64,000 nucleotides of DNA from a virus: positions 32,001 through 96,000 of the IMG/VR virus record IMGVR_UViG_3300047666_001259; one strand, written 5' to 3'. How positions within the stretch are numbered: position 1 is the stretch's first letter; each line of letters starts with the position of its first letter. Below are positions 1 to 51,050 of the stretch, one piece after another. The notes below the pieces were generated by a model. The model ran no database searches. It worked only from the letters and a program-made list of their open reading frames with translations, and was not told where the DNA came from. Position numbers and translations under genes: made by a program.

Positions 1-177
1 GGGTCTATTCAGAACAACAGCTTTACAACTGCTTTCAGAAAAATAAGAGATTTCATTTCATTTGAATCACTTCACGAATTGTACGATGGAGTAATTGGGT
101 GGTCAGAAGAAGGTGGGAGAGAATACATTGTATATAATCCTAGAAACATTAAGATAATAAATTTTACGATCTTATAA
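1..177 (+). CDS. 3' end of a CDS truncated by the window edge; C-terminus resembles ADP-ribosyltransferase-like (ART-PolyVal-type) domains
   Basis: Frame 1 is open from 1 to TAA 175-177 and ends ...YDGVIGWSEEGGREYIVYNPRNIKII..., similar to the YDG..E..vf.p.qIk pattern. Confidence 0.35.
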   Translation, partial: GSIQNNSFTTAFRKIRDFISFESLHELYDGVIGWSEEGGREYIVYNPRNIKIINFTIL

Positions 178-197
178 TAATTTTGTAACTTTGCTTC

Positions 198-383
198 ATG
201 GAGCAAGTAGGGCAAGTACAAATATTTAGTCAAACGGACGACCCCGAAACACTACAACGTGAGATGAATGATTGGTTGGTTGATTGTGATGTGACAGTTG
301 TTCGTGTCCTACAAACCCAATCTGGTAGAATGGATACCACCTTGACTATCACTTTATTTTACGTGAATAATCCCGAAGATTAA
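198..383 (+). CDS. hypothetical protein; its stop codon TAA forms the TAA|C core of the first cassette site
   Basis: 61 aa ORF, TAACTTTG promoter box at 186-193. Confidence 0.7.
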   Translation: MEQVGQVQIFSQTDDPETLQREMNDWLVDCDVTVVRVLQTQSGRMDTTLTITLFYVNNPED

Positions 384-435
384 CGGTTTGTGTATGTACC
401 GTTTGAGGTACGAAAATGGAATATAAACAGTGTTA
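381..435 (+). repeat. attC-like hairpin A1
   Basis: TAAC GGTTTGTGTAT GTACC GTTTGA GGTAC GAAAATGGA ATATAAAC AGT GTTA. Confidence 0.7.
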
Positions 436-676
436 TAAAATTAAATTGATTATGGGAATGTTTGATACAGTAATAGTTCCGTGTCCAGAATGTGGAACAA
501 AAGAAGAATTTCAGAGCAAAAGTGGTGAATGTTTTTTACAAGAAGTAGAATTAAAAGACTGTCCAAGTGATATATTGTATGACGTGAATAGACACTCGCC
601 ATACACTTGTTGTGATTGCGGTACTTTATTCGAGGTAGACACAAAATCTAAAGAAAGTACTAAAGTAGTGTTGTAG
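416..676 (+). CDS. small Zn-ribbon protein (cassette cargo); start may be Met at 452
   Basis: CPECG and CCDCG motifs. Confidence 0.7.
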   Translation: MEYKQCYKIKLIMGMFDTVIVPCPECGTKEEFQSKSGECFLQEVELKDCPSDILYDVNRHSPYTCCDCGTLFEVDTKSKESTKVVL

Positions 677-677
677 A

Positions 678-904
678 TAACGATGTACCTTTTTAAAAGC
701 AAAACGGGCGAGTGTAAAATTTGAAAATTATGGATGATAAAACGATAGCTTATTATTTACAGCACAAAGTAGAAGTAAAAGAGAATAGCTTAAAACCTAT
801 GGATAAACGTCATAAAATACCTAAGCGCATAAAGAAGGAAATAAAAGAACTAAAAGCAATGATTGAACACTTGACGGAATAATTTTTTGTTTTTATACAT
901 TGTT
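678..904 (+). repeat. attC-like hairpin A2 with an ORF inside the loop
   Basis: Left arm AACGATGTAC..TAAAAGCAAAA pairs with right arm TTTTGTTTTTATACATTGTT. Confidence 0.65.
730..882 (+). CDS. 50 aa basic hypothetical protein inside the loop of site A2 (not in the ORF track)
   Basis: ATG 730 to TAA 880-882, MDDKTIAYYLQHKVEVKENSLKPMDKRHKIPKRIKKEIKELKAMIEHLTE, AT-rich leader. Confidence 0.6.
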   Translation: MDDKTIAYYLQHKVEVKENSLKPMDKRHKIPKRIKKEIKELKAMIEHLTE

Positions 905-935
905 GTGCTTAACGAAGTGGTGTTTTAATGAAGCA

Positions 936-1007
936 CAACGGTTGCAAATATGAGAAGTAAATCTTTTCATTAAAAAATAGACAAAGTAAGATTTATTTCT
1001 TATATTT
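936..1007 (+). repeat. attC-like hairpin A3 (GTT core degenerate)
   Basis: AAATATGAGAAGTAAATCTT pairs with AAGATTTATTTCTTATATTT. Confidence 0.65.
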
Positions 1008-1038
1008 AGTATCAAAAATTTTATACAAATTAAAAAAT

Positions 1039-1260
1039 ATGGAAAATACATTTGAACCAAGAAAATCCATCTCCGAAAGATATAGTTTGGAGAATATGTC
1101 TAAACAAAGAGGAATGTCTATTGATGACTATAAGTTAGAAATAGACAAACAACTCAAAATGAAACAGGATATTATTGATAAACAACTATCAAAAGGATGG
1201 ACACAGGAACAATCTGAAACTCACGCTATGAGGTGTTTGTATATTGATGGATTTTCTTGA
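1039..1260 (+). CDS. hypothetical protein (cassette cargo)
   Basis: 73 aa ORF flanked by a perfect 15 bp inverted repeat at 1010-1024 / 1285-1299. Confidence 0.7.
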   Translation: MENTFEPRKSISERYSLENMSKQRGMSIDDYKLEIDKQLKMKQDIIDKQLSKGWTQEQSETHAMRCLYIDGFS

Positions 1261-1306
1261 CCGACATTCAAAGATTAAGAACTCATAAAATTTTTGATAT
1301 TGAATA

Positions 1307-1429
1307 TAACGCTGAGTATATGAAACGTAAATTTTAAACAGACAAAATGAATAAAACAGGATATTATATATTAGGAATACTGAGCGGTTTGACCCTATAC
1401 AAACTAATTTATGTTTTATATACATTGTT
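1307..1429 (+). repeat. attC-like hairpin A4
   Basis: GTATATGAAACGTAAATT pairs with AATTTATGTTTTATATAC (two G.T pairs), then ATT GTT. Confidence 0.75.
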
Positions 1430-1586
1430 GTTGTTAGTTGATTTTACGCCTTTATACCCTTACTTAATAGATATAAACTATTATTGCGAAAAGTATACAA
1501 CTAAAAATATTGCTGAAATAGGTGCAATACTTTTGATAGTAATACCAATAGCAATATTTGTGATTAAAGAGCGCAGACTTAAGTAA
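1347..1586 (+). CDS. small two-TM membrane protein; starts in the A4 loop and reads through the right arm
   Basis: Two hydrophobic stretches; YVLYTLLL is encoded by the hairpin right arm. Confidence 0.65.
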   Translation: MNKTGYYILGILSGLTLYKLIYVLYTLLLLVDFTPLYPYLIDINYYCEKYTTKNIAEIGAILLIVIPIAIFVIKERRLK

Positions 1587-1599
1587 AATCTATTAACTA

Positions 1600-1651
1600 C
1601 AATGACTACTGTATGTGGCGTAGCTTTTCGCTATGACATATAAAGTTTGTT
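1600..1651 (+). repeat. attC-like hairpin A5
   Basis: CAAT..TGTATGTGGCGTAGC TTTTC GCTATGACATATA..GTT. Confidence 0.7.
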
Positions 1652-1688
1652 AGCATTAGTACGGATTAATAACTAAAAACTTAATAAG

Positions 1689-1880
1689 ATGACAAAAAGA
1701 GAAAGATTAAAAGAGTGGATTAAAACTCTAAACGAAGAACAAAAAGATACTGTGATACTTGAACTTACAGACTTTGCAATAGATGCCGAGTATGTTGGTT
1801 TTTATGATACTACGAAAGTACCATATTATGATTGTACTGGAGAAAATCTAGATGGAACTGAAAGCGATGATGAAGATTAG
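1689..1880 (+). CDS. hypothetical acidic protein (cassette cargo)
   Basis: Bounded by GTTAGCATTAGTAC (1649) and GTATTACTGCTAAC (1880-1893). Confidence 0.7.
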   Translation: MTKRERLKEWIKTLNEEQKDTVILELTDFAIDAEYVGFYDTTKVPYYDCTGENLDGTESDDED

Positions 1881-1931
1881 TATTACTGCTAACGTATAGT
1901 AATATGATTAGTGCGGATTAATAACAAGAAA

Positions 1932-2099
1932 ATGGCAAAGACACGAGAACAAAAAAGAATTGAAAATGCGGATAAAGTTTGTAGAGAACTTAGATACCAA
2001 ATAGTAGAATATGGACTAATAGGCGATTGGGATGCAATTAATAAGCATTTTAATTCTTGGATGAATAATGCTAAAAAATCTAAATACGAAAGACCTTAG
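1932..2099 (+). CDS. hypothetical protein (cassette cargo; likely ATG 1932)
   Basis: ORF track 1911..2099; the GTG at 1911 lies in the hairpin arm. Confidence 0.65.
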   Translation: MAKTREQKRIENADKVCRELRYQIVEYGLIGDWDAINKHFNSWMNNAKKSKYERP

Positions 2100-2136
2100 C
2101 ATTAGTACGGATTATTAACAGATAAATTATATAAAA

Positions 2137-2322
2137 ATGGAAGGAATAAAAGTAACATTAGTGCCAAATCAAGAAACAGACTACCAAGCGTTTAGATTTG
2201 ATGAATTAGGTATTACTTATTTTGAATGGTCAAAAATGAGTGAAGATGATAAAAGAATCTTGGTGTTAGAAAACATTATGGAAAATATATGCTCTCACGT
2301 TGACTCGATGGATGAGTATTAA
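2137..2322 (+). CDS. hypothetical protein (cassette cargo)
   Basis: Bounded by TTAGCATTAGTAC (2096) and GTATTAATGCTAAC (2316-2329). Confidence 0.7.
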   Translation: MEGIKVTLVPNQETDYQAFRFDELGITYFEWSKMSEDDKRILVLENIMENICSHVDSMDEY

Positions 2323-2325
2323 TGC

Positions 2326-2521
2326 TAACGGATATGGTTAAGGTTAGTTGCGGGTAGAATATTAATGAATTAAATAAACAAAAATGAAAGCAGATTTAGA
2401 ACAGTTGGAAAAAATGCAAGAAGACTTATTTAGGCAACAATGTGATTTAGATATACAGAAAGCAATGGTAAAACACTTTATAAAAAAGAAAGAAGACGAG
2501 CTATTAACTTTAACCGATGTT
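2326..2521 (+). repeat. attC-like hairpin A7 with long coding loop
   Basis: GGTTAAGGTTAGTTGC pairs with GCTATTAACTTTAACC, then GAT GTT. Confidence 0.75.
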
Positions 2522-2584
2522 GTGGACAGTTTGCCAAGTGATAGACCTAAATTAAGACCATCTTACATTGGCGATAAAGACTAA
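2384..2584 (+). CDS. coiled-coil hypothetical protein starting in the A7 loop
   Basis: ELLTLTDVV is encoded by the right arm and GTT core. Confidence 0.7.
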   Translation: MKADLEQLEKMQEDLFRQQCDLDIQKAMVKHFIKKKEDELLTLTDVVDSLPSDRPKLRPSYIGDKD

Positions 2585-2615
2585 AAAAAATAAAACAATA
2601 CGGTGTAATTGTCTA

Positions 2616-2685
2616 CAACACCGAAATAAACTCTTGTGCGTAGCATAGAGTTTATTGAATGTTAAAGTGCGTTTTTATGCACTTT
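2616..2685 (+). repeat. terminal attC-like hairpin A8 plus short tail hairpin
   Basis: AATAAACTCT..TGC GTA GCA..AGAGTTTATT GAAT GTT AAAGTGCGTTTTTATGCACTTT; homologous to 52133-52197. Confidence 0.75.
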
Positions 2686-3558
2686 TTAGCTATTTAAAAC
2701 AGTGTTAAATGTTTGAGTTAAATCAGGGTTTATGATTCTCTGCTTGTAATCAAGTTCTCCCGAAGTAAATTGAGATTTTCTAGTCAATAGATTGAATTCC
2801 CTAAACAAGAACCCATTTTCATCAAATACTCTGTATTTACCACTTGCATTATCACGAATAGTATTCCCATAGAGAGCGTATGAGAGCGTCTTAACAGTTT
2901 GATCGACCATTTCGATCTGAATCACTGTAGGATCGAAGGAAGTGGCTGTAATGAGTATCTTCTGCCCTGCATTACCTAAGTTCACTTGTTGTGAATTTGA
3001 AATAAGGTTTCTTTCATCAGGAGTTAGAGTTAAAAACAAGTTTGTTCCGTTTGGATCAAGAACATAAGTGCTTGAACTAGCATTGGCGTTGTTGTTGTTT
3101 GTAGAAACAGAAACAACCTCAGATGTAGTAACAATCCTGTGAAAGTTTTTTGTCTTTACTCCATTTTCATCAAAGTATTCGATCATGTAACCGATCAACG
3201 ACCCGGGACTCTGAAACTGAAGTTTTGGAATAATAATTCCTTTCTTAGAAATCTGAACCTCAGTATCTGTATTTGTTGTAATCATCGAACAATCAATAAT
3301 CGTTGTTTCAAACGACTTAGGTTTAATAAGCACAGTGTAGAAACCTAATCTGTTAAAAATTGAAGCAGGAAGCCTCAATTCGTAGACACCATCTGCTCCG
3401 ATCAGTTTCTTAAATTCATTATCTGATATTGCACCAAATAATGGAGCCATCTGAGGGTTCGTTGGAGTCTCTCTAGAGGCTGTATATGAATACAAAACAT
3501 CAACATCATTGCTGTTGACATTTGAAAGTACTTTTGTTCCGTATATTCCTACACTCAT
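2686..3558 (-). CDS. putative virion structural protein
   Basis: 290 aa, beta-rich, last gene of the structural block, TATTTAT motif upstream. Confidence 0.55.
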   Translation of the reverse strand: MSVGIYGTKVLSNVNSNDVDVLYSYTASRETPTNPQMAPLFGAISDNEFKKLIGADGVYELRLPASIFNRLGFYTVLIKPKSFETTIIDCSMITTNTDTEVQISKKGIIIPKLQFQSPGSLIGYMIEYFDENGVKTKNFHRIVTTSEVVSVSTNNNNANASSSTYVLDPNGTNLFLTLTPDERNLISNSQQVNLGNAGQKILITATSFDPTVIQIEMVDQTVKTLSYALYGNTIRDNASGKYRVFDENGFLFREFNLLTRKSQFTSGELDYKQRIINPDLTQTFNTVLNS

Positions 3559-3591
3559 TTCTTTGTTTTTTTATAAATATCTGTTTAAAAA

Positions 3592-5988
3592 TTATCCACC
3601 CGTGCTTCCATCAGTTGTTTCAGATTCATCCGTAGGGTCGAATAACTCATATGGAATACTTTGCCAAGAGCCAGCCTCTCCATCAAAACCAGTTGTTATT
3701 GGACAAATAGTACTCAATAAAGTAGATAATCTAAAGTTAAAATCACTATAGTTAGTGTCATTACTATAATCATCAAGTATCACAATTCCATTCATAGTTA
3801 TCTTATGCTTATGAATTTCACCTAAGAACGTGTCGGTGCAAAGACCTCCAGACTCATAAGTAACCGCCATGTTAGTGTAAGTTGTTTGTAGATTATATCT
3901 ATTCACAAACGGGTTCACTGGAGCAGTTGTAGTAAATGTTCCTAAATTTAGAGTCTCGCCATCTTCTGATCCCTTCATCACAAAATTGTGGAATCCATTT
4001 TCAATCCCACTCACTGGAATAGTTGGGTGAATATATCTTAGCTTCATTCCATAATCTGCTCTTAAATAAATTGGTCTATTAAAAGTAAACTCCCCTAATT
4101 GAACAGTAGTCTCTCCTAGTATAGCGTTTGTGGGTAAGAAGAATTGAAATTCATTTCCTGTCACAGGAATAATAAAATCCTCTCCCGCAGGAACTGTCTG
4201 TCCGTCAAAAATAATATCATCCCCATTATTGGTAATGATCATTTCAATTTTAGAAACAAAATCTCCATCACTATCGAATCCAAAATTAAAATCAGGGAAA
4301 CTAGAGAAGCTTTGATCAAAATCTTGAGTTGCCTCATTATATTGATGACCCATTTTAACTAACCAAACATTCGATTCTTGATTTGTAGCTTCAGATGAAA
4401 GCCTCCTTAAGTGAGTAGCACTATTACCCTCTGTCATTCTACCCTTTTGCCTATAAAGGTCACCTAGATTGAAAACTACAGGCTTTGTAATTATAGTAGC
4501 ATCTACAATATTAACAGCTCCTTGAATTGGGTATACAGAAGTATCAAATTCCAATCCGAAAGGATTCTCTAAACTAACTGTAACAGATTCAATAAACTCT
4601 GGAATTTGATCAGCAAGTAATTGAATATCTACTGTCTTAGTTAATTCCCCAATTCCCCAAACAACCCTCTGAGGGCTTATTAACCTAAAGTCTGCTTCTT
4701 GGATAGCTATATTTTGTGCTGAATTTAAGTAAGAAAAAACAACATCAACACTTTCTCCTCCGAGAGAGCTAGTTTGATCTAAAGTTAATTCAAGTCTAAC
4801 TAAATCACCTTCTTGCGCATTTAATGTGAACATCAAATCACCCCTTAGTGTTTGATACATTTGCCCAAGGTCTCCAGTAAATCCTACTTTTCTAAATATT
4901 GTGTTATCAATAATTACAGCATTATGCTCTAAATTGTCACCTCCATATACATTTAAGAGAGAAGTTAACTTTATAATAATACTTTCAGGTTGTTCAACAA
5001 CCAAATCGTTATTAACAGTAAGATTTATAGTTTTAAATTGTTCTCCTATACCCCATTGAATTAAGAAATTTTCTCCAATAATAACATCATTAGGATCAGC
5101 GGTTACATATTCGACAACAACCTCAACTTCTTCTATCCCTCTGATAGAAGGTTGAGAAAGAGTTAAGGGTATGGGATACCCAGCGCCTTCGATATACTGC
5201 CCTCTGTTTTCAAGGAAAGATACACCTAGCGCATTGTTATTAAACACTACGTTTTCGTTTGTTTCTAAATTTGTATCTACGAAACACTGAAGAATACTTG
5301 AAACAACGTTGGATTCACCCGGGTTGCTTGGAGAAACATTTTCTAATATTTCAAAATATTCAGCATTCAAGTCAATAATTCCTCCCACATAAGATTCAGC
5401 CAGAATTGGCTGAATCTGAACATCAATCACATCATTACAAACTTTATAAGTCTCAATAGCTGTTTTGTCGTAATTCTTGTAGAGTTTTATCGGAAGATAA
5501 TAACTATCCTCATTCGTGTATTCATACAAATAATCACGAGTAGAGTCAATTCTACTTGCGCCCCCAATGCTAGCTGGCGCACCCGAAGGTCTCACAAACT
5601 CATTCCCATCCCAAGCAAAACTATTGTCACTCACGATTATGTTAATTGTGTTTTTTAATTGATCATCAATAAACACGGTTGGAGAAGGAGTTCCTCCAGC
5701 TACGGTTGTTTGAAAAAATTGGTTAAAAACAATTGAAAGCTTTCGGTCATCATAGAATATTTCCTTCCTCTCTGCTTCGTTAGAATTTTCGTTTAGATAT
5801 TGAATGAAATTATCGATAACAATTTGATTTTGAGAATTGTTCAAATACCCACGAATGTTAAACTCACTAGTAATACCTCCACCCAAACTTTGAGTATAGA
5901 CATAGTAATCATCACTTAATTCCAATTCGCTAACTGTAATTGGAGAGCCTGTAAAACGTGGGTTTAAGAAAAGGTCAAACTGTTGCAT
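3592..5988 (-). CDS. large acidic virion/tail protein with Calx-beta-like repeats
   Basis: Two repeats of the type WGIGE..KT(I/V)....D...E..ES(I/V)...L. Confidence 0.55.
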   Translation of the reverse strand: MQQFDLFLNPRFTGSPITVSELELSDDYYVYTQSLGGGITSEFNIRGYLNNSQNQIVIDNFIQYLNENSNEAERKEIFYDDRKLSIVFNQFFQTTVAGGTPSPTVFIDDQLKNTINIIVSDNSFAWDGNEFVRPSGAPASIGGASRIDSTRDYLYEYTNEDSYYLPIKLYKNYDKTAIETYKVCNDVIDVQIQPILAESYVGGIIDLNAEYFEILENVSPSNPGESNVVSSILQCFVDTNLETNENVVFNNNALGVSFLENRGQYIEGAGYPIPLTLSQPSIRGIEEVEVVVEYVTADPNDVIIGENFLIQWGIGEQFKTINLTVNNDLVVEQPESIIIKLTSLLNVYGGDNLEHNAVIIDNTIFRKVGFTGDLGQMYQTLRGDLMFTLNAQEGDLVRLELTLDQTSSLGGESVDVVFSYLNSAQNIAIQEADFRLISPQRVVWGIGELTKTVDIQLLADQIPEFIESVTVSLENPFGLEFDTSVYPIQGAVNIVDATIITKPVVFNLGDLYRQKGRMTEGNSATHLRRLSSEATNQESNVWLVKMGHQYNEATQDFDQSFSSFPDFNFGFDSDGDFVSKIEMIITNNGDDIIFDGQTVPAGEDFIIPVTGNEFQFFLPTNAILGETTVQLGEFTFNRPIYLRADYGMKLRYIHPTIPVSGIENGFHNFVMKGSEDGETLNLGTFTTTAPVNPFVNRYNLQTTYTNMAVTYESGGLCTDTFLGEIHKHKITMNGIVILDDYSNDTNYSDFNFRLSTLLSTICPITTGFDGEAGSWQSIPYELFDPTDESETTDGSTGG

Positions 5989-6497
5989 TACTTGTTAATT
6001 GTTATATTTAAATCATTTGCTTTAGACGTTACATTAGATAGGTTAAGTTGTTCTAAATCTAAGTCATCTATCGTTATTGTGCTACCATCTGTCAAAGTCC
6101 AAGGTAGACTGTTCTTCCCTTGAGAATCAAACCATCTCTTCACTTCTTGATTGCTGAAATTAGATATCTCTGGTCTTAAAGACCTGATATAATCTATTAT
6201 AGTCACAATTAAATCTTCGCCTTTGTTAATATGAATTTCATTTACATTATCAAAGAAACCAAACTCCATGTAAAAAGGATTTACTTCCTGTCTTTCAATC
6301 TTCTTAATAGTGTCGTCAATAACAACATCGACATAATCTATGATTTTCTCTGTTCTCAACATCGGGAACTGAATAAAGAAATCGTTTTCAGGCACTTCTG
6401 CTAGAGTTCTATCGCTTTGAACGATACCATATCCTTGCGAATACCCGCTAAAAGGTAGGGTGTTAATATAGAGTTGATATTTTCTTGAGTCTTCCAT
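5988..6497 (-). CDS. hypothetical (probable structural) protein
   Basis: 169 aa, translationally coupled to the downstream gene. Confidence 0.55.
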   Translation of the reverse strand: MEDSRKYQLYINTLPFSGYSQGYGIVQSDRTLAEVPENDFFIQFPMLRTEKIIDYVDVVIDDTIKKIERQEVNPFYMEFGFFDNVNEIHINKGEDLIVTIIDYIRSLRPEISNFSNQEVKRWFDSQGKNSLPWTLTDGSTITIDDLDLEQLNLSNVTSKANDLNITINK

Positions 6498-6517
6498 TTA
6501 CATTAAATAAGAGAATA

Positions 6518-9500
6518 TTATATTTGATAGGCAAAACCACCTAAACCATTTCTTCCGACATTTGCATCTCCAACCAAAAGATTAGGTACAATTGTTTGCG
6601 CTGTAATATAAGTGCCTAACACATCTAGTTGAATTTGTGATAATTCCAACCCAGCTAACCCCAACTCTTCTTCATCGCTAATAAAGAAGTTATTGCTTGT
6701 ATTTCCAAAAGGATTGGCGAATTCCATACCGAAGTTAGGATCATATTCAGCAAAATTAAACCCTCCTGTATTATTAGAACCTCCCCCTATTTCCTGAATA
6801 ATATCAACAAAACCATCAAGAAGTTGTTGAAATAAATCAGCAGTGTCCTCAACTGGTGTGTATTGATCGATATTTGTAACAGCAAAATCTTGAGCTAAAA
6901 ATTTTGATCTCATTCTAAGCTTATCAACTTCAATAAGCTCTCCATCCACTAAGCCTCCAAAGTTTCCATCACTATCCCCAACATCAATAACCTCCTGCAT
7001 ACTTGGGTTTCCAGCCAATGTCTCACCTTCTGAGTTATAAACCCAAACTTGATCACCATTTTCCCACCATATACTTGCATCACCATGTAAAGTGTTGGAA
7101 CCACCAGCTCTTCCAATTTTATAAAGAACATCATTGTTCAGTTTAAAATCAAAACCCCTATATCCATCTACTTCTGAAAAGTCAGCGAAAGGAATATGGA
7201 CATCTATAACTTTTTTAGTTGGAAAAGATACTATGTTCTCATCTGTACAGGGAATGACTTCAACTGAATTTGAACTCCAAAAAGAAGATTCTAAAATTTC
7301 TCCATATAGATTAAATCTGCCATAAGTTGTCAGATTTAATCTAGAGTTTGGCAAGATATTATCAGACAAAAGAGCTATGTGATTTATGTAAACTTTTTCC
7401 GAGAAAGGCATTGGAGTTCCAACATACCCTTGTTCACCTTCGTCTTCAATAAAAGTAGTAAGTATGTCTTCCGAATCAGGAATAACATTTCCTAATCCAT
7501 AAAAATTACCTCCGTTATAAATTGATCTATTCAAATAGAAGCACTCTTCATTTTCCTGATCGTAAGGAGTTAGTACGCTCCCTAACACATTAACAAGATA
7601 TTTATTTACACCTTCCTCAGAAGTTTCTAAGAAATCTGGAGGAACTACCATTGTCCTATATCCTTCTTTTGCAAAAGATATTTCATAATAACACTTTTGG
7701 TTTGCTGTGTTAGCGTATAGCTCAAAATTGACACCACTCTGACTAGAGGGGGTGTATTCTTGGATTGTTTCTAAAAGCCACCCTTCCACTGTAATTTCTA
7801 CCGTTAAGAATCCTCCACCATCTTTTGAAGAAAAGGTAATCGATGATTCATTATCATCAAAAGTTGCTTTAAAATCTTTCTCTAATCCCTGATTTTTAAT
7901 ATAGTCATATTGACCGCCATCAAGCTTTGCTTTAAACCTTACATAGTAGCTACTAAAGGCTCCCTCAGCATCAACAGGCAGTTTTGTTCCGTTAACAATA
8001 AAGTCTTTGTCTGCTGGGAAAAAATCATAATCATTAGGGTTTGTAGACCCAGTGTAAGTTGCCTTAATTTTATGAGGAACAAAATTATCGTAACTAATTT
8101 TCACTGGGAAACTCTTTTCTTCTCCCGCTAAAATCGCAATTTCCTGATCTAAACCAAAAACTGGATTCACTGGAATTACTGAATTTATCCCAGTGTTTCT
8201 AATTTTAACAATCATAGTGTCGCAGGGAAAAAATTCAGCGTTCACCCCTTGCCAAGAAGCTCCGTTCCTTAAAACTGAAGGGCTAGAATAATTAAACACA
8301 TCATTGTTAGAGAAGTTTGAGTTATAAGCCTTTCTTCCTTCGAAGAGTAGCCTGTTTTTGTAAACATCTCCAATATTGAATTTAACCTTACCTCTTTCGG
8401 TTTGATCTAAAATGTAAAGCTGAGAAACTGGAATAATTCCATTTTCTAATCTGAATTTTTCAGATAATGAAAAATTAAACTCTTCTTTAAGCTCAATTTC
8501 AACATCATCATTAACTATTATTTGTAAATCCTTGCTTATCTCATTTTCTTCCCAAGACATAGAATAAGGGAATTCAATAGACTCCCCATTTAGCAAAACG
8601 TCCATATCAGGAACAGAGCCAATATTGTAGTTGATTATGTCAGAGAAGGTCTCATCTGCATTATCTGCATTAGGATCATAAGAAGCATCAAGAGTTATTC
8701 TGTATCTTGTGTAATATTCATCACCTTCTACATCAGGGTTAAAGAAAGAAATTTCTTCCACATTAAGAATAACATGAGTTCCGATATAACTTCCACTACC
8801 AATAACTAAAGAGAAACCAGCCGTAACAATATCTAAAGCCCCAGTTGGAAGCGCTGTATAGAATGCAACATTGCCTCCAACATTTCTAAATAGTATTCCT
8901 TGAGAACCCTCTTCTCCCTCAAGAGTTTGCGATGCTACCTGACCAAAGTAATAAGAAAAATTCGTAGCAGGAGAAGCTAGGTTAAATAAACAAGTTTCAT
9001 TTCCGAAAGGAGATGCTTCGTTTAAATATATTTGCATATTGAACACTTGACCTTCTTCAATTTCATCACCAGTGGTTGAGAAAGAAATTTCTCTAGGTTT
9101 TTCTTCCTTAACGTCTAAATCCAATCTAATCCAATGCTTATTGAAAAAGAAAGAAAAATCGTTTTCAATTATAAGAGCCGACTCTCCAAAAGCATCAAAA
9201 TCAAATGTATTTGTTCCGTAAGAAACAAAATCTCCATCAACATTATAAAAAACAAGCTTTTGTTCCCAAGACTGATCCTCATAATAAAAGTCATCTGATA
9301 CTAATCGAATATAAGCAGAATCGAATGGATAGTTGTTTAATTCAATAAGATATTTTCCATTTTTTCTTCTAAAAATGTTATCTGTATCAAAAGAGTAAGT
9401 ACTACTTTGAGTTGTGGAATATAAATCAGAATAATTTGCATCTGAATATATCTCAAGAGTCAAGTTGTTGCAATCAATAATTGTAGAGGATAGTTTTCCG

Positions 9501-13617: not shown

Positions 13618-13927
13618 CATCATCTAGCTCCTTCTTTATAGTTTCCATATATGATGCATCGAAAACATCATAAAAGAATCCTATCCTCATTGTGTGATAG
13701 GAGTTGTTTATAATATTTTTAAATTCTCTCTGATTATCTTGCTCATACCTTTGAAATGAATCCTTAGAATCTAGGACTTCAACAGGAAATCTATGAAAAA
13801 ATAACTCAAAATGATCTCCACATTCTTCTTGTAATTCAACCATTTCATTATAAGTACAGTCCGTAGGCTTAACGGTAGAGCCTAAAGTCAAACAAAAAAT
13901 CAACAGTATAAAGATTGATAGCTTCAT
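13592..13927 (-). CDS. secreted hypothetical protein
   Basis: N-terminal signal-like hydrophobic stretch; coupled to the baseplate gene. Confidence 0.55.
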   Translation of the reverse strand: MKLSIFILLIFCLTLGSTVKPTDCTYNEMVELQEECGDHFELFFHRFPVEVLDSKDSFQRYEQDNQREFKNIINNSYHTMRIGFFYDVFDASYMETIKKELDDVIACQGKQ

Positions 13928-15798
13928 TATAAAGAAGCTACACGGATTGAAACATCTTTTGCTACATCCATAATCTCGAACATCACCAAAGGTAAACCTC
14001 TTACTGAATTGTCTAGTAAGTCAATCTCAGTAATATAACCCCCTGTTTCAGGAATCAATTGTGTGTTTGATCCAGCTTGTGGGTGAAGAGTTTCTGAATA
14101 ACCACCATCTTGCATGTTGAAGAACTTAATCTCGACAACGTTAATCACGCCCGGTACCTCTCGGAGGGTGTCTACAATTTGAGATACGTAAATATGCTCA
14201 TTCATTTCCCATTTTTCTACATCAAAGAAATCGTTAATCTCTTTCACTGTAGCTTGCTTAATCTCTTTTGAATTAAAGTTATCTCCATCAATCAACAGAT
14301 CAACATTTATTCTAAGATTTATAATCTTTCCATCGTTGATCTCAACAAAGTCGTTTATCATTCTGTAACGAGAAATGTAATTAATCAAATTGTCTTTAAT
14401 TCTATCGGTTGAAGGAGATACTAGTTTTCCATTTCCAGCTCTGGAAATGATATGCATGATTACCTTATTCTCATCAACTTCAGCTGCAATTCTAAATGGT
14501 GATCCGAATTTTCCATCAATCTGATAGGCACGAGATGTGTAATCCCTGAGAGTAACACATCTCTCTTGAGCTGCGTGGTTAGCTGCTGTGTTGCTGACGA
14601 TTTCTTCAACAGAAGGCAATCCTCTACCCCCAAGAGCTGGAAATGGGTTACTTACTCTTGTTGAAGCTACGACTGCATCGTTAGTTCCTTGGTCGATTCC
14701 CGGGTTGGTTGAGTTGATATTACTAACCTCCTGTAAAACATTTGCCCCAACATTAGAAGTCAAACCCCCACCAGCTCTATACTTTACATAAACAGTACAA
14801 TTTGCAGGTAATTTTTTTCCTAAAGCCTTATTATCTAGTACATCTCCAATATTGATCGCACTCTGAGGCTTGAAAGGATTTTCAACCCCAATCAATGAGT
14901 CCAAATAATTCTCATAAGCATCATACGACTCTACGCCACCACCAAAAGTAATCCTACAAGAACCGTCTGCTAAAAATTCTTTCTCAAACCTTCTAGGAAC
15001 TTCTTTCCAATATCCTTGGAAATTTCCATTTGCATCTTGAACATCTGATTGCTTAAAAAATAAATCATCAGTCGGAAGAAAGTCTACTTCATACCATTTA
15101 ATCGAATCGTTGTTGAAATCTGAAAATGTTGGATTAGAATCCAACCCTAACTGCTCGTATATGATTATAGAATCTACATGAAGAACATTCTTATCAGGGA
15201 TATTGAATTTATAGAAAGGCTTATTGCCATCAGTAATTTCTCTTTTTATGATCTTAGTAACCCCTGCCTTAACCTTTTCTCTCTTTACGATTTGATATCT
15301 AAGAAGTTGTTGGTTCTGGTTTAAAACCTCATTAATAACTCTGTTTGGTATTCCGTCTTCCGAGAAGTCAGAAGAAAAATCTATATCTTCAAGAGTTTCA
15401 AAAACTTGACCACCACCAGCAACCCTTAACCCTGAACGGTATATTGGTAAATATGAAGTGTCTGGCCCGTCAGAGGTAGCTGGTACATCAATGATTATAT
15501 CAACAACTGTTACCGCAGGGCGTACACCCGGCACCCTATAACCTTTGGTTTTTGCCAACCTATAAGCATCAACTCTTTGACGAACTCCGTCTAAAAACAG
15601 TGAGTTGAATTTTTTGTCCGCAAGGTGAGAAAGAAGATCACCAACATAGGCATTCAAGTCGAGTATTGCCATGCCCGGTGATGCTACATTGAAATCTTGC
15701 CACTCATCTGGATAAAAGGCTTTTAGATAATTCTCCAAATCTGTTCTAATGGAAGAAAAATTTCTACTTAAATAATTAACTTGTACTTGATCTGACAT
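13927..15798 (-). CDS. baseplate wedge subunit (T4 gp6 / baseplate J-like)
   Basis: NYLSRNFSSIRTDL..YLK..YPD.WQDF..ASPG..LDL.AYVGDLLS; AAQERCVTLRDY. Confidence 0.85.
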   Translation of the reverse strand: MSDQVQVNYLSRNFSSIRTDLENYLKAFYPDEWQDFNVASPGMAILDLNAYVGDLLSHLADKKFNSLFLDGVRQRVDAYRLAKTKGYRVPGVRPAVTVVDIIIDVPATSDGPDTSYLPIYRSGLRVAGGGQVFETLEDIDFSSDFSEDGIPNRVINEVLNQNQQLLRYQIVKREKVKAGVTKIIKREITDGNKPFYKFNIPDKNVLHVDSIIIYEQLGLDSNPTFSDFNNDSIKWYEVDFLPTDDLFFKQSDVQDANGNFQGYWKEVPRRFEKEFLADGSCRITFGGGVESYDAYENYLDSLIGVENPFKPQSAINIGDVLDNKALGKKLPANCTVYVKYRAGGGLTSNVGANVLQEVSNINSTNPGIDQGTNDAVVASTRVSNPFPALGGRGLPSVEEIVSNTAANHAAQERCVTLRDYTSRAYQIDGKFGSPFRIAAEVDENKVIMHIISRAGNGKLVSPSTDRIKDNLINYISRYRMINDFVEINDGKIINLRINVDLLIDGDNFNSKEIKQATVKEINDFFDVEKWEMNEHIYVSQIVDTLREVPGVINVVEIKFFNMQDGGYSETLHPQAGSNTQLIPETGGYITEIDLLDNSVRGLPLVMFEIMDVAKDVSIRVASL

Positions 15799-31603: not shown

Positions 31604-32713
31604 ATGAACAATCTAGATAAACAATACCAAGACTTACTTCAAGATATTCTTGAAAACGGCACAAAAAAAGGAGATAGAACAGGAACAGGAACTATCTCAG
31701 TGTTCGGAAGACAAATTCGACACAACATGAAAGATGGGTTCCCTCTTTTGACTTCCAAGAAAATGGCAACCAAACAAATTATCACTGAACTTCTTTGGTT
31801 CTTACGTGGTGAGACAAATATTCAATCTCTAGTTCAAGATGGAAACTATATTTGGGTTGGTGATGCTTATAAGAAATACACCACGTACCACAATAACCAT
31901 CCAACTATCCACTCCAATAGATTTGAGATTCTTTCTAGAAAAGATTTCATCGAAAAAATCAAAACTGATAACGATTTTGCTAAACAATGGGGCGATTTAG
32001 GGCCAATCTACGGGAAACAGTGGAGAAAGTGGACTTCCACTTATTTTGATAAATACACCTCTCAAGACCCGAAAGATTTATCAGTTCACGTAGATCAAAT
32101 TGCAGAGATGATAGATAAGCTCAAAAACCGACCAGATGATCGAAGAAATATGGTTACTGCTTGGAATCCAGCTGAAGTAGATGCCGCAACACTTCCTCCA
32201 TGTCATTATGGTTTTCAAGTTTGGACAAGAGAACTCTCTATAAGTGAAAGAAATATGATCATGTACGATCACCCTGAGTTTGATGTAGGTGATGTTCCAA
32301 TAGGAAAGCGAGAAGAGGAAGATAAAGAACATTATCTCAAAATGGATCACCAATTATGTGATGGGTATAATGTTCCAAGGCGAGGAATTTCACTTCTCTG
32401 GAATCAAAGGTCTTGTGATACTCCTTTAGGGATTCCGTTTAACATTGCTTCTTACGGAGCTTTGTTGCAAATATTAGCCCAAACAGTAAACATGGTTCCT
32501 GAGGAGTTGATTGGAAATCTTGGCGACACTCACATTTATTTGAACCAAGTAGATGCAGTAAAAGAACAGCTTAAAAGAGCTTCTCACAAACTACCTCAAT
32601 TGGAAATTGAAATACCAAAAGGAATGACTGACCCTGCTGAGTTAAAGTATGAAAACTTCAAGTTATTAAATTATATATCAGAAGACAAAATTGCCTTCGA
32701 ATTATCAAATTAA
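31604..32713 (+). CDS. thyA: thymidylate synthase
   Basis: DRTGTGT, ELLWFLRG, LGPIYGKQWR, LPPCH, QRSCD..LGIPFNIASY, GDTHIY. Confidence 0.97.
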   Translation: MNNLDKQYQDLLQDILENGTKKGDRTGTGTISVFGRQIRHNMKDGFPLLTSKKMATKQIITELLWFLRGETNIQSLVQDGNYIWVGDAYKKYTTYHNNHPTIHSNRFEILSRKDFIEKIKTDNDFAKQWGDLGPIYGKQWRKWTSTYFDKYTSQDPKDLSVHVDQIAEMIDKLKNRPDDRRNMVTAWNPAEVDAATLPPCHYGFQVWTRELSISERNMIMYDHPEFDVGDVPIGKREEEDKEHYLKMDHQLCDGYNVPRRGISLLWNQRSCDTPLGIPFNIASYGALLQILAQTVNMVPEELIGNLGDTHIYLNQVDAVKEQLKRASHKLPQLEIEIPKGMTDPAELKYENFKLLNYISEDKIAFELSN

Positions 32714-47856: not shown

Positions 47857-48168
47857 ATGAAAAAAGAAAATTTAATAGAACAATATAAAGAAATATCGAA
47901 AACATATTCATCTTTTGAAGATTGTTATAATCTTGTAACAGAAACTAATAATGTAGAAATATGTAAATTTTGTTTAGATTCTGATGGTATTTGGAAAAGA
48001 CTTGAATTACAATGGATGTTGGAATTTTTTCAAACCAACGAAGAATATGAAAAATGTGAAGTTTTGAAAAAATTAATAGAAGAACATTTTATTGCTGATG
48101 AATATAAACAAAATGAGTTGAATAGTAAATTAGATGAATATGTTTCTTATATAAATAACGGTAGTTAG
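47857..48168 (+). CDS. hypothetical protein (possibly first cassette of array 2)
   Basis: EEYEKCEVLK motif; very AT-rich; ends in TAACGGTAGTTAG. Confidence 0.65.
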   Translation: MKKENLIEQYKEISKTYSSFEDCYNLVTETNNVEICKFCLDSDGIWKRLELQWMLEFFQTNEEYEKCEVLKKLIEEHFIADEYKQNELNSKLDEYVSYINNGS

Positions 48169-48512
48169 TAATCCTATATAAGAATAGTAATAAAGGACGT
48201 GGAACTGCCGCTAATGAAATAATGAGTGGTTATGCGTTGTATAATAACAACTGTGCTGAACCCACTTGGTTACTTACTGAGTTTAATTATTTAAAAGAAA
48301 CAACAAATATTAAATTCAAAAAATACTTTGGATATAAATTAACTGAAGAAGAAAGCGTTGTGTTTTGCTATGAAAATGATTGATATAATGAGTGAGACAC
48401 TAAGGAGTGCAAAGGGAGTGCCTAATGGCTCTTTTCGGTGTGCCGATGACGAATGTATGTTATCCCCCTCTCATTCATTATATCTTTTGTTATTGTGCGT
48501 TTTAATACACTC

Positions 48513-48714
48513 TAACGGTTTGTGTATGGGTATTTTTTGCCCGATTTAATAATAACTAAAATTTAATAAAATGACTGAGGAAATTAAGCAATTACTGATT
48601 GACTGTGCAAACTTTATCCAACCGTATGATGATGGAGGAAACGAAGCTGAAAGGTTAATGATAAGACTTGATGAAGCACTAAAGCAAGGGTAATAATTAC
48701 CTATACACGTTGTT
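48513..48714 (+). repeat. attC-like hairpin B2 with an ORF in the loop
   Basis: GTGTATGGGTATTTTTTGCCC pairs with GGGTAATAATTACCTATACAC. Confidence 0.75.
48571..48693 (+). CDS. 40 aa ORF inside the B2 loop (not in the ORF track)
   Basis: MTEEIKQLLIDCANFIQPYDDGGNEAERLMIRLDEALKQG with the shared AATAACTAAA leader. Confidence 0.55.
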   Translation: MTEEIKQLLIDCANFIQPYDDGGNEAERLMIRLDEALKQG

Positions 48715-48736
48715 GTATGTCTTTTTTAATTGCATA

Positions 48737-48790
48737 CAATATGTTGTATGTGCCGTTATGAGGCACGAGCAATGAATTTTAAACCTTGTT
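48737..48790 (+). repeat. attC-like hairpin B3, homolog of A1
   Basis: GTATGTGCCGTTATGAGGCACGA..AATG..TAAAC..TGTT. Confidence 0.65.
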
Positions 48791-48805
48791 AGGCACTTTA
48801 CGATA

Positions 48806-48997
48806 ATGGATAAGATGGAATCATTCACGTACAAAGGCTTCAAGGTAGACCCAACTTGTTATAACTATGGTTTTGAATGTATAGTTCAAGACGAAGCACC
48901 AAAGCTATTTGGTATGTCTATAAATGGCATCAAGTTAGAGATTGACGAATGGATTAAAAAAGAAAAAAGGGAAGGGGAAAACTTAGAGTACCTATAA
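48806..48997 (+). CDS. hypothetical protein (cassette cargo)
   Basis: ORF track. Confidence 0.65.
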   Translation: MDKMESFTYKGFKVDPTCYNYGFECIVQDEAPKLFGMSINGIKLEIDEWIKKEKREGENLEYL

Positions 48998-49014
48998 AAT
49001 TAAAGACAAATAAA

Positions 49015-49320
49015 ATGAACGAATCAAAAGAAATGATGGGGGAGCAATGTTTAACCGAAAAACAAACATTAAAAACCTCTTTAGAAAAATTAAACCAAAG
49101 AAACTATGAACTGAATGATATTGCGTCATTAAGTTCTCTATTAGTAGAAAAATTCTTTAACCCTAATAACGAGCCTAGAGATAATCAAGGTTCTGATAGA
49201 GAAAAAGAAAGACAGCCTGATAATATAGTTGAAGTTTTTGACGAGGTATCTAAAAAGCTTGGTAATAACATAAACACTATTGGGAGCAATTTGCAAAGAA
49301 TATTGGCAATAATGGAATAA
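49015..49320 (+). CDS. coiled-coil hypothetical protein (cassette cargo)
   Basis: ORF track. Confidence 0.65.
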   Translation: MNESKEMMGEQCLTEKQTLKTSLEKLNQRNYELNDIASLSSLLVEKFFNPNNEPRDNQGSDREKERQPDNIVEVFDEVSKKLGNNINTIGSNLQRILAIME

Positions 49321-49392
49321 CCAACTTGTGAGCGTGGGCTTTTTCTTATTAGCAGAATGTTTGATTTGAAACTGAATTTAGCCCATGACTTA

Positions 49393-49479
49393 CAACGTTT
49401 AGGCTAAGGTTAGTAGCCTTTAATACTAACCATTAAATTATAACAAGACCTATTGAGGCTATTAATTTTAGCCATTGTT
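49393..49479 (+). repeat. attC-like hairpin B5
   Basis: GGCTAAGGTTAGTAGCCT pairs with AGGCTATTAATTTTAGCC; related to the A7 arms. Confidence 0.75.
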
Positions 49480-49493
49480 AGGCATAGTTTATT

Positions 49494-49697
49494 ATGGAAG
49501 CAAGAGAATTTTACGACAAAAGAATTAACGAAGAACCGACTATTGGAAGCGTACAGTTAATGGAAGAATATGCAAAACATATTATTGAAATTAACTTTTG
49601 TGATGGCTCTCCTATTGAATTTAACAAACTATCGGTTGAGCAACTAAAAACAATTCACAAAAATATAAATAAGTGTGTCGATTGGGTTAACTCCTAA
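49494..49697 (+). CDS. hypothetical protein (cassette cargo)
   Basis: Bounded by GTTAGGCATAGTT and AATTGTGCCTAAC. Confidence 0.7.
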   Translation: MEAREFYDKRINEEPTIGSVQLMEEYAKHIIEINFCDGSPIEFNKLSVEQLKTIHKNINKCVDWVNS

Positions 49698-49704
49698 TTG
49701 TGCC

Positions 49705-49828
49705 TAACGGAATTGTATAAGGTTTCGTTACGTAGATTAAATAATAAATTAACAAATAAAAACTGAATTGTGATTAAGCAAGAAAATAATAAACAAACAG
49801 AAATTAGTAATGAACTTTATACGGTGTT
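49705..49828 (+). repeat. attC-like hairpin B6
   Basis: GTATAAGGTTTCGTTAC pairs with GTAATGAACTTTATAC, one extra base in the left arm. Confidence 0.75.
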
Positions 49829-50108: not shown

Positions 50109-50113
50109 CTGTT

Positions 50114-50302
50114 GTTATCGGCAGTTTAATTGAAAAATATCAAAAAGTTCGCAATAAAAATCAGGAGCAATTTATGACTCAATTTGGAAATGAATATTCT
50201 ATATCAAACGCACTTTTATTGGAAGAAAGAGATTGTTGCGACAGATTTATAGAAGATTTGAAAAAACTGCCGATAACGGCTGATGATAAACAATCGTTTT
50301 AA
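50114..50302 (+). pseudogene. headless cassette ORF left after collapse of its upstream hairpin
   Basis: Open frame VIGSLIEKYQKVRNK...KLPITADDKQSF* beginning exactly at the GTT core. Confidence 0.45.
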
Positions 50303-51041: not shown

Positions 51042-51050
51042 ACTTACACA

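Follow-up and report, generated by a model that had tools for sequence, protein, structure and literature searches.

Array 1, a run of nine small genes that occupies about 2.3 kb in a large marine phage, is probably a recombinase-less cluster of about nine cassettes belonging to a Bacteroidota-type integron-like system. Recombination itself is inferred, without read evidence. The window, as we call the whole 64-kb stretch of DNA that was analysed, is part of a 106-kb viral record, and all coordinates refer to it unless otherwise indicated.

The array is flanked by a resident gene on the + strand (198-383, 61 aa) and by a convergent gene on the - strand (2686-3558, 290 aa) that marks the edge of a tail/baseplate block. 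The 290-aa protein itself gave no PHROG or Pfam family match, and a baseplate wedge match lies near its gene, at 13927-15798. Both edges are as the first-pass annotation had described them. On the left, the sequence reads GAT TAA↓C, the TAA stop of ORF 198-383 (381-383) overlapping the AAC of the junction (382-384); GGTTTGTGTATG comes directly afterwards, and a site at 48511 has the same 16 nt, counted from the stop. On the right, the last hairpin ends at 2685 and abuts the stop codon of the convergent gene (2686-2688). At this edge TTAGC aligns with the TTAAC of relatives, and the expected AAC reads AGC.

The same annotation predicted that, in a relative without the array, the flanking genes would abut at a TAA junction. 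When the check was run, two close relatives were found in which both genes meet at TTAAC with no array in between. In L002, whose 290-aa gene product shows 94% amino acid identity, the 2.3-kb array is absent and the ORF 198-383 homologue (63 aa) ends GAGGAT-TAA-CC, its stop overlapping that of the convergent gene (TTAA). A TARA relative (L264) likewise lacks the array and has its flanks joined at ..TTAACC.., the native end of the 290-aa gene in relatives. In further relatives the slot holds instead a 106-aa ORF or a TnpB gene. As aligned, array 1 is an indel at overlapping stop codons, and gain here has not been polarised against loss in the relatives. The locus thus offers a clean natural experiment: one phage backbone with the array present or absent, joined at a single triplet. 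ORF 198-383 was also considered as a cassette, a possibility rejected in view of L002, where AAC is missing upstream of the gene; a 12-bp pairing around this ORF (178-189 with 432-443) was set aside as low-complexity and probably fortuitous.

The array had been described as eight sites of the same design. The description is roughly right; our own count is nine junctions, with AAC at 382, 679, 937, 1308, 1891, 2327 and 2617, AAT at 1601 and AAA at 2073. A bacterial covariance model (see below) gives significant scores to three, those at 937 and 2327 have homologous sites in other phages, and the one at 679 is weak. Junctions 1891 and 2073 are degenerate, so array 1 may be decaying rather than active. 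An attC-type architecture, R''(..AAC)-spacer-L''-loop-L'-spacer-R'(GTT..), is found at 382-434, 1308-1429, 1601-1651, 2327-2521 and 2617-2663. Inspection of the sequence recovered all five complementary pairs quoted in the annotation (902-910 with 931-939, 1010-1024 with 1285-1299, 1427-1447 with 1583-1603, 1649-1662 with 1880-1893, and 2519-2529 with 2609-2619), the second of which extends to 25 nt (1000-1024 with 1285-1309) with no mismatches and two G.T pairs. Ends that are complementary across a gene make up five pairs in array 1.

All units lie on the + strand. Cassette 1 (384-681) has a folded site that runs from AAC 382-384 to GTT 432-434; the cassette ends with AAC 679-681, and its ORF (416-676, 86 aa, zinc-ribbon-like) starts within the folded site. 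In cassette 2 (682-939), a long stem (677-687 with 896-906) encloses ORF 730-882 (50 aa) in its loop, and the ORF is followed by an "empty" R'/R'' hairpin made of GTTGTGCTT (902-910) and AAGCACAAC (931-939). In cassette 3 (940-1310), a hairpin (945-1008) and R' (998-1024) precede ORF 1039-1260, and R'' occupies 1285-1310. The arms of cassette 4 (1311-1603), 1316-1333 and 1406-1423, form 18 bp with two G.T pairs; ORF 1347-1586 starts in their loop, GTT is at 1427-1429, and R' (1427-1447) pairs with an R'' (1583-1603) that ends in AAT. Cassette 5 (1604-1893) contains a hairpin (1612-1642), GTT 1649-1651, R' 1649-1662 and R'' 1880-1893. Cassettes 6 and 7 have lost the hairpin. The former (1894-2075) is degenerate, with ORF 1932-2099, an R''-like AATAATGCTAAA (2064-2075) and a copy of the R'/leader repeat (direct-repeat family D1) at 1902-1935; the bacterial model covers its left half only, with 9.9 bits. 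The latter (2076-2329) has R' (C)TTAGCATTAGTAC (2095-2108), ORF 2137-2322 (61 aa) and R'' GTATTAATGCTAAC (2316-2329), and shares its end family with cassette 5 while the genes are different. In cassette 8 (2330-2619), the arms are 2335-2351 and 2500-2516, R' 2519-2531 pairs with R'' 2607-2619, and ORF 2384-2584 has its start in the loop and continues across GTT 2519-2521; Polaribacter phage P12002S has a homologous site with the same read-through, "LTLTDV". The terminal unit (2620-2685) consists of a hairpin (2625-2656), GTT 2661-2663 and a second hairpin, AAAGTGC / GCACTTT (2665-2683). It shares 80% identity with the last part of array 2 (52116-52216), and a TG/CA to CA/TG swap between the two is compensatory.

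Evidence for movement of a unit came from a comparison with L259, a distantly related phage: the 290-aa protein and its L259 homologue share only 34% identity, and in L259 more than 110 kb separate the homologue from the array. Positions 924-1311 of the window match L259 2874-3273 with 88.5% nucleotide identity, the identity ends at an AAC at either boundary, and the two copies have different neighbours. Different arrays thus contain one and the same cassette, with breakpoints at core triplets, and we count its transfer as established. The comparison places the + strand boundaries at AA↓C, and the unit boundary initially proposed at G↓TT was not borne out. As units run from AA↓C to AA↓C, each hairpin belongs to the downstream gene; the first reading of ORFs that start inside a hairpin had to be corrected, as they remain within one cassette. 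The view that ORFs crossing GTT are chimeric, with "swappable halves", was rejected because hairpin and gene travel together in L259. Relative to L259, cassette 3 has lost 12 nt (GTTGTTATATTT), a loss that removes GTT, and its ORF has a premature TGA six codons ahead of the family stop. Homologues of this ORF make up 34 protein clusters with 70-92% identity, mostly of 79 aa; an alignment-based search with it returned the same contig only. A hairpin about identical to 937-1008 over 71 nt is present in LR756500.1 and is followed there by a different gene. Either some exchange takes place elsewhere than at AA↓C, or different cassettes reuse the same sites. The ATGATAAACAAT-CGTTTTAATG hairpin is present in three copies in L259.

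Could the units be transposon-like, with GTT...AAC terminal inverted repeats, or could the stems be chance palindromes in AT-rich DNA? Inverted repeats do surround single genes, and weak stems are abundant if G.U pairs are allowed: counts of such stems exceed those in shuffled AT-rich DNA only about 2-fold, and about 18 GTT..AAC stems occur as background on each genome strand. Significance therefore rests on Watson-Crick runs, model matches and comparisons. Perfect Watson-Crick inverted runs of at least 10 nt number 6 in array 1 against 1.9 in shuffles (maximum 5), and four GTT...AAC-bounded stems occur in 2.3 kb where about 0.4 are expected. The 937-1311 segment folds with -85.1 kcal/mol (z = -6.4). 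In five arrays, R'(n) pairs with R''(n+1) with a mean anchored pairing of 9.8, compared with 5.4 for other pairs (p = 0.0017). The strong stems are concentrated in the two arrays, on one strand, and covary, and conserved hairpins whose family spans the phylum alternate with the units. There is no transposase, and target duplications were not observed. Both ideas are therefore hardly tenable.

The relationship with bacterial sites was examined with a covariance model, R1, built from 104 Bacteroidota chromosomal elements only, with no phage site in the build. The bacterial element is 45-62 nt long (AACG-4nt-GTATAWG..TATAC-3nt-GTTR); 98% of its stem positions are paired, with 34 G.U pairs versus no A.C, and covariation amounts to 92 compensatory cells versus 21 in shuffles. 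R1 detects 373-443 (27.9 bits), 1299-1438 (33.7 bits) and 1592-1660 (31.4 bits) in array 1 and four sites (15.6-38.4 bits) in array 2. Its matches in the window are confined to the two arrays and to the + (coding) strand; the remaining 42 kb of the record gave none at E<0.8, and L001 and L002 gave none at E<=10. The whole record contains exactly two arrays; the annotation had inferred at least two independent integration loci. The R boxes ATTnnnnnnAAC / GTTnnnnnnAGT are common to phage and bacterial sites. Judging from these matches, the predicted folded sites of array 1 belong to a site family that is shared with Flavobacteria chromosomes. Rfam contains no family for either the phage sites or the bacterial element, and our literature search found no paper on Bacteroidota integron-like cassette sites (a working name). 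Matches to the exact 14-mer TATACATTGTTGTG in a scan of viral contigs were mostly due to chance and were left out of the evidence.

Phage genes lie on the folding strand and each site stands ahead of its own gene, the reverse of the arrangement in bacterial arrays. In bacteria, the folding strand is the bottom strand relative to the cassette genes, as in classical integrons. Another explanation is that the hairpins are RNA signals (terminators, or processing or stabilising stems) amid fast-evolving small early genes, like the promoter/stem-loop cassettes of T4-type phages, and that these genes turn over by homologous or illegitimate recombination without any site-specific enzyme. Phage stems contain 40 G.T and 8 A.C pairs, the G.T-bearing strand being the coding strand; such a bias would also fit a role in mRNA, a point that speaks against our main explanation. 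Other features agree with RNA signals: as RNA, the + strand folds with z = -6.4 against -3.4 for its complement, the terminal hairpin is followed by Ts like a terminator, and a leader, TAGTRCGGATTAATAAC, is repeated ahead of three genes (copies at 1650, 1902 and 2096). In bacteria, however, the element is antisense to neighbouring genes (97 versus 4), and therefore the G.U-bearing strand is not mRNA there. RNA signals also leave unexplained the AAC/GTT boundaries, the breakpoints at AAC, the R'/R'' pairing across each gene and the association with recombinases described below. We consider this explanation unlikely, although an added RNA role is not excluded.

The absence of an adjacent integrase, also stated in the annotation, holds for this 31%-complete record but not for related jumbo phages, in which an Xer-like recombinase lies directly downstream of such arrays. 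The 106-kb record contains no PF00589 match, no match with the bacterial enzyme and no tyrosine recombinase, and no recombinase was found in two other array-bearing sequences, the 462-kb record LR756500.1 and the complete P12002S genome. In bacteria, the best IntI-like match lies within 4 kb of the sites in 4/4 genomes, and the two enzymes that were typed are both XerA-like. In phage G008, a recombinase homologue is encoded 36 nt downstream of the array (45% identity, E = 5.5e-56), and relatives of this Xer-like type, devoid of the integron-integrase insert, are found in 96 viral contigs. R1 matches occur near the viral recombinase in 31 of 79 loci; all 52 matches share the strand of the recombinase gene and lie upstream of it. 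In the complete jumbo phage G012, sites are present also at distances of 9 and 28 kb from the recombinase. We thus regard the link between such sites and Xer-like recombinases, in bacteria as well as in phages, as established.

Integrons are regarded as bacterial, IntI-dependent and nearly absent from Bacteroidota, and attC clusters borne by phages have until now been interpreted as fragments of bacterial integrons that are carried along passively. Array 1 might likewise be a classical integron fragment (CALIN), its attC sites made and moved by a host IntI with the phage as passive carrier. Textbook cores exist in the sister array (GCCTAAC at 49703 and GTTAGGC at 49477), the R''-spacer-L''..L'-spacer-R' architecture is that of attC, and attC clusters have been reported in virulent phages, including CALINs called by attC models in Polaribacter phage P12002L (Qi et al. 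2023, PMC9892861); its sister phage, P12002S, has the site family of array 1. However, no IntI above cut-off was found in the Flavobacteriaceae-type genomes tested, and integrons are reported to be rare in Bacteroidetes (PMC9024848). For the array-adjacent enzymes, bacterial and phage alike, the match to TIGR02249 is split in two and below cut-off, with positions ~185-240 missing; their best family is NF040815 XerA_Arch, and the additional domain specific to IntI is absent. A true IntI was found in a single case, an Ignavibacteriaceae MAG, and no such element lies within 18 kb of it. P12002L_attC1 (AAC-GGCTA-stem-CGTTTTAATG-stem-ATT-GTT), by eye a member of the same family, was alone among six phage sites in not being recombined by IntI1 (PMC9892861), a result that counts against our main explanation as well. 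Together with the reversed gene-to-site polarity, these observations make a passively carried IntI fragment very improbable.

Under the integron-like explanation that we favour, each cassette would read, on the + strand, C - spacer - hairpin (L''..L') - spacer - GTT-R' ... gene ... R''-AA. In a free circle, R'' and R' would pair and form with the hairpin a complete attC-like folded site. An Xer-like tyrosine recombinase is inferred to cut the folded + strand at AA↓C, inserting or excising cassettes; the enzyme might be supplied by the missing two thirds of the genome, by a co-infecting phage or by a Flavobacteriaceae host. The AA↓C at which the array is seated and the TAA stop of ORF 198-383 overlap; relatives have the TTAAC of the overlapping stops at this spot. 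The first insertion may have used this genomic AAC as a secondary site, as IntI1 does with attG. For IntI1, insertion has been shown at ordinary genomic sites in which a GWT is conserved (Loot et al., 10.1101/2022.09.11.507474). As in attG insertion, array 1 starts at a plain genomic AAC (GTT on the other strand) with no attI; unlike it, the target is in a phage genome and both enzyme and event are inferred, while IntI1 insertion has been shown in E. coli.

With integrons and CALINs (PMC9892861, PMC4889954, PMC9024848), array 1 shares tandem co-oriented small genes, imperfect hairpins, AAC/GTT cores, unpaired spacers, cassette ends complementary as in an integrated circle and one strand that folds better; like a CALIN, it has no adjacent integrase. 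It differs from integrons in its own conserved site family (12-bp R box, GTATATG/CATATAC L boxes), in R'/R'' pairing over 12-26 nt rather than 7, in loops that can contain gene starts or whole genes, in genes on the folding strand behind their site, in a family member that is not an IntI1 substrate, and in the associated XerA/Xer-like recombinase, which lacks the insert that defines IntI and in phages lies downstream of the array and co-oriented with it. Sedentary chromosomal integrons, such as the Vibrio cholerae repeats, have homogeneous attC sites, one site type serving many cassettes. The hairpin reuse seen in L259 and in cassettes 5 and 7 is similar, although recombinase, site family, polarity and host (a phage) all differ. 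PeSL (promoter-early stem-loop) cassettes were reportedly described by Arbiol et al. in 2010 in hyperplastic regions of T4-type phages, and their shuffling is ascribed to homologous recombination among modules of similar sequence. There too, small orphan phage genes each stand beside a repeated module (a promoter/stem-loop) and gene content varies among relatives; the AAC/GTT cores, cassette-specific complementary ends, bacterial counterpart and associated tyrosine recombinase of the present system set it apart.

The locus and the recombinase-headed arrays of about 30 viral contigs point to a phage-adapted cassette system with a different recombinase subtype and with a polarity that places the folded site on the mRNA strand. 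With somewhat more confidence than doubt, we propose that large phages of Flavobacteriaceae run their own integron-like capture, with an Xer-like enzyme without the IntI insert, a site family shared with the host and reversed polarity. Arrays like array 1, remote from any recombinase and lodged between stop codons, would be seeded in trans at plain AAC, phage and host would use the same chemistry with separate cassette pools, and integron-type capture would have arisen, or been retained, in the absence of the domain considered to define integron integrases. If active, the system would explain the turnover of many small orphan genes in jumbo phages of marine Flavobacteria, and the minimal needs of single-strand, structure-specific recombination could be tested with a simpler enzyme.

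Pfam and PHROGs searches with the nine cassette ORFs gave nothing beyond weak zinc-ribbon matches, in both databases, of ORF 416-676. No loci related to this ORF were found, nor any phage homologue of the cassette 5 ORF (1689-1880, 63 aa). The Bacteroidota -7 motif TAnnTTTG is present, as judged by eye, at some sites only. Weak homologues of ORF 416-676 were detected in Vibrio and Rhizobium phages.

Array 1 (384-2685, + strand) holds nine small ORFs between ORF 198-383 and a convergent ORF of 290 aa (2686-3558, - strand) at the edge of a tail/baseplate block. Every complementary pair quoted in the first-pass annotation was found at its coordinates, and several were longer than first stated; for example, 1000-1024 and 1285-1309 form a 25-nt pairing that includes only two G.T. 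The assignment of both array edges to stop codons also held. The left edge, at the stop of ORF 198-383, reads GAT-TAA|C-GGTTTGTGTATG, the initial 16 nt of which are repeated at 48511 in array 2, the second cassette array of the record; on the right, the terminal hairpin ends one base before the stop codon of the convergent gene. The stem signal exceeds chance: six Watson-Crick inverted runs of at least 10 nt were observed vs 1.9 in shuffles, stems bounded by GTT..AAC number four in 2.3 kb (about 0.4 expected), and the fold of 937-1311 has z = -6.4.

Degenerate junctions at 1891 and 2073, together with a premature stop in ORF 1039-1260, suggest that parts of array 1 are decaying. The stop of this ORF is a TGA where members of its 79-aa family have GGA, and the family stop is the TAA at 1276-1278; the product is therefore six residues short. 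A perfect 14-bp inverted repeat (1058-1071/1246-1259), conserved in L259 (the end of the 122.6-kb viral contig G008), lies within the same ORF, near its start and at its stop. Comparable inner stems are found within other cassette ORFs (51949-51963/52036-52050; locus L005, 1932-1950/2190-2208), adding to each such cassette a nested third stem of unexplained role. A repeated leader, TAGT(A/G)CGGATTAATAAC, is detected at 1650-1683, 1902-1935, 2096-2129 and also 51825; it sits 15-25 nt 5' of several cassette start codons and may serve cassettes without a common promoter, either as promoter or as translation leader. Upstream of ORF 198-383, TAATTTTGTAAC (178-189) is complementary to GTTATAAAATTA (432-443), the R' of the first site, R' and R'' being the complementary boxes at cassette ends. 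Such pairing would be consistent with ORF 198-383 having split an older, intact site; the sequences are, however, of low complexity, and chance may be the explanation.

Relatives of the locus were retrieved by search with the 290-aa protein. The first-pass annotation had proposed testing whether, in a relative without the array, the gene of ORF 198-383 abuts the 290-aa gene at a TAA junction, and L002 is such a locus. Its 290-aa homologue is 94% identical at the aa level, and its ORF 198-383 homologue ends GAGGAT-TAA-CC, with a stop that overlaps that of the convergent gene. Positions 173-389 map to L002 5798-6004 and positions 2693-6618 to L002 6002-9919; therefore, array 1 is absent in L002. 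In the TARA contig L264 (93%), an ART-like gene is directly followed by ..TCTTAACCGTTTA.. and the 290-aa gene, and neither ORF 198-383 nor array 1 is present in the slot. Loci L001 and L003 carry a different 106-aa ORF there, and in L265 the slot next to the 290-aa gene is occupied by a TnpB/IS605 OrfB gene (L265 7079-8281; Pfam PF07282, PF01385 and PF12323). Because these relatives differ in content at this place, the slot is a hotspot. Array 1 itself is an insertion or deletion whose edges coincide with the TTAAC of two overlapping stop codons; gain and loss have not been polarised. A possible structured RNA lies beside the TnpB gene of L265. Just upstream of ORF 198-383, an ORF of 174 aa (positions 31653-32177 of the record, window -347..177) encodes an ART-PolyVal ADP-ribosyltransferase domain (34.9 bits) and makes a second presence/absence difference in the slot: it is present in L264, absent from L002, and has no hairpin sites.

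Rows similar to array 1 were found in LR756500.1, a 462-kb phage record, and in Polaribacter phage P12002S. A search pattern derived from the commonest phage form (AACG-4nt-GTATAWG..TATAC-3nt-GTTR) and scanned over one genome per prokaryotic species retrieved more than 120 loci, nearly all from Bacteroidota. These bacterial loci contain a 45-62-nt element, with a few highly conserved subfamilies, that is not covered by any Rfam family; the loop of its short form, CGTTT(C/T)AATG, is found too in phage 'empty' units. The short gaps that hold the element separate co-directional genes, to which the element is antisense: 97 right-hand neighbours lie on the minus strand vs 4 on the plus strand, and their stops fall -2 to +12 nt from GTTR. 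The stem is 98% paired and shows 92 compensatory cells vs 21 in shuffles, and at one stem pair there are 69 G-C and 34 G-U cases but no A-C. Because of the pairing, the compensatory cells and the occurrence of G-U without A-C, the bacterial pattern strand (the one carrying AACG..GTTR) is the strand selected to fold. Relative to the genes this is the bottom strand, as in integron attC sites. In five arrays, pairing of R'(n) is far stronger with R''(n+1) than with other ends, and adjacent bacterial sites obey the trans-complementarity rule too (e.g., GTTATGCTC and GAGCATAAC in bacterial locus L142). One short-form element, in an Ichthyobacteriaceae MAG (L171 4572-5036), lies about 300 nt downstream of a 5S rRNA gene; the element therefore occurs also singly, outside gene arrays.

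A covariance model built only from bacterial elements was then run on the window, on the remaining 42 kb of the record and on array-less relatives. In the 64-kb window it gave seven matches, every one on the + strand and inside array 1 or 2: three in array 1 (373-443, 1299-1438 and 1592-1660) and four in array 2. The other 42 kb of the record and the array-less relatives gave none. Because the matches of a bacterial-only model are confined to the two arrays and to one strand, the phage sites belong to the bacterial site family. The earlier inference of more than one array was likewise borne out, the record having exactly two by this model. In array 2 (48156-52200), at least seven sites belong to this family, and the textbook cores GCCTAAC and GTTAGGC are among them. 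The unit that closes array 2 shares 80% identity with the end of array 1, the final hairpin showing a compensatory swap.

In phages, cassette genes lie on the pattern strand, according to our own ORFs for this record and to the depositors' CDS for P12002S, and non-Watson-Crick stem positions on that strand are 40 G.T vs 8 A.C. Evidence on the cassette boundaries comes from G008, which encodes a homologue of the 290-aa protein with only 34% identity, over 110 kb away from its array. Positions 924-1311 match L259 with 88.5% nucleotide identity, spanning hairpin 937-1008, R', ORF 1039-1260 and R''. Identity ends right after the AAC at 1310 and decays upstream of the one at 937, and the flanking neighbours are different on each side. 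Because identity breaks at AAC on both sides, the transferable unit runs from AA|C to AA|C on the pattern strand, which equals G|TT, the classical crossover point, on the other strand. The folded site thus lies upstream of its own gene in phage cassettes. On this reading, three oddities are resolved. ORFs that start in a hairpin and cross GTT (cassettes 1, 4 and 8, and the P12002S homologue) stay in one cassette, without implying chimeric proteins; ORF 730-882 can lie entirely in a loop. Comparison with L259 also indicates that the GTT missing at 1008 was lost by a 12-nt deletion between two TTATATTT repeats. Elsewhere in G008 (L271 4548-4920), the cassette adjoining a recombinase has the hairpin and R'/R'' family of cassette 3 (that of ORF 1039-1260) with a different 79-aa gene, so that one complete site type has been reused with different cargo.

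No tyrosine recombinase was found in this record, LR756500.1 or P12002S. In four of four element-bearing bacterial genomes, sites are no more than 4 kb from the best match to the integron-integrase model, and in an Aquimarina MAG the enzyme is followed by six site-terminated cassettes. The site-adjacent enzyme aligns to that model in two pieces, skipping positions ~185-240, and the two typed enzymes (bacterial loci L257, 9303-10376, and L258) match NF040815 XerA_Arch. A tyrosine-recombinase survey describes incomplete conservation of the IntI insert in the integron-like subgroup. When compared with phage records, the bacterial enzyme had one match, a 268-aa homologue in G008 (L271 4957-5763; 45% identity, E = 5.5e-56; NF040815, 184 bits) that starts 36 nt past the last AAC of an array. 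Relatives are encoded by 96 IMG/VR contigs. The bacterial covariance model, run on 79 of these loci (E<=0.01), gave 52 matches over 31 loci, every one on the recombinase strand and upstream of the recombinase. G012 (288 kb, with terminal repeats) and G013 (362 kb), both complete jumbo phages, carry the recombinase-site module and a 32%-identical homologue of the 290-aa protein. Because G012 has further sites 9 and 28 kb from its recombinase, arrays remote from the enzyme, like both arrays here, are normal for the group.

The window covers positions 32,001-96,000 of a single viral record of 105,908 bp (~34% G+C; CheckV completeness 31%). On that estimate the complete genome would span about 300 kb or more, and the recombinase may well be encoded in its unsequenced part. 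No close relative was found among deposited phages, whose DNA matches are limited to intergenic pieces of 34-126 nt. As these pieces are shared with phages of Polaribacter, Tenacibaculum, Cellulophaga and Maribacter, the host is probably a marine Flavobacteriaceae bacterium; two uncultured huge phages share them as well.

Clusters of attC sites without integrase have been described in virulent phages, including Polaribacter phage P12002L, whose P12002L_attC1 was the sole site of six not recombined by IntI1 (Qi et al. 2023, PMC9892861). By eye, its layout is that of the phage/Bacteroidota family, and the failure of IntI1 is consistent with another enzyme acting on this site family. In IntegronFinder surveys, integrons are almost absent from Bacteroidetes (PMC9024848), and full-text literature searches turned up no paper describing a Bacteroidota-wide cassette system of Xer-like type.

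The site family, the TTAAC indel, the transfer of a cassette with breakpoints at AAC, the bias between strands and the association of sites with the recombinase are observations; the mechanism is inferred, without direct evidence of recombination. A Xer-like enzyme would bind the folded + strand and exchange strands at AA|C. The entry point of the first cassette would have been the genomic AAC within the overlapping stops, by likeness to IntI1, which inserts cassettes at genomic attG sites with a conserved GWT (10.1101/2022.09.11.507474), and later cassettes would have been added at existing sites. An additional role of the hairpins in mRNA is not excluded. The junctions fit the expected insertion products: the left one is GATTAA|C followed by the site, and the right one, ..GCACTTTTTAG|C, aligns with ..TTAA|C of the relatives with one A-to-G change, so that the inserted end supplies the stop of the convergent gene.
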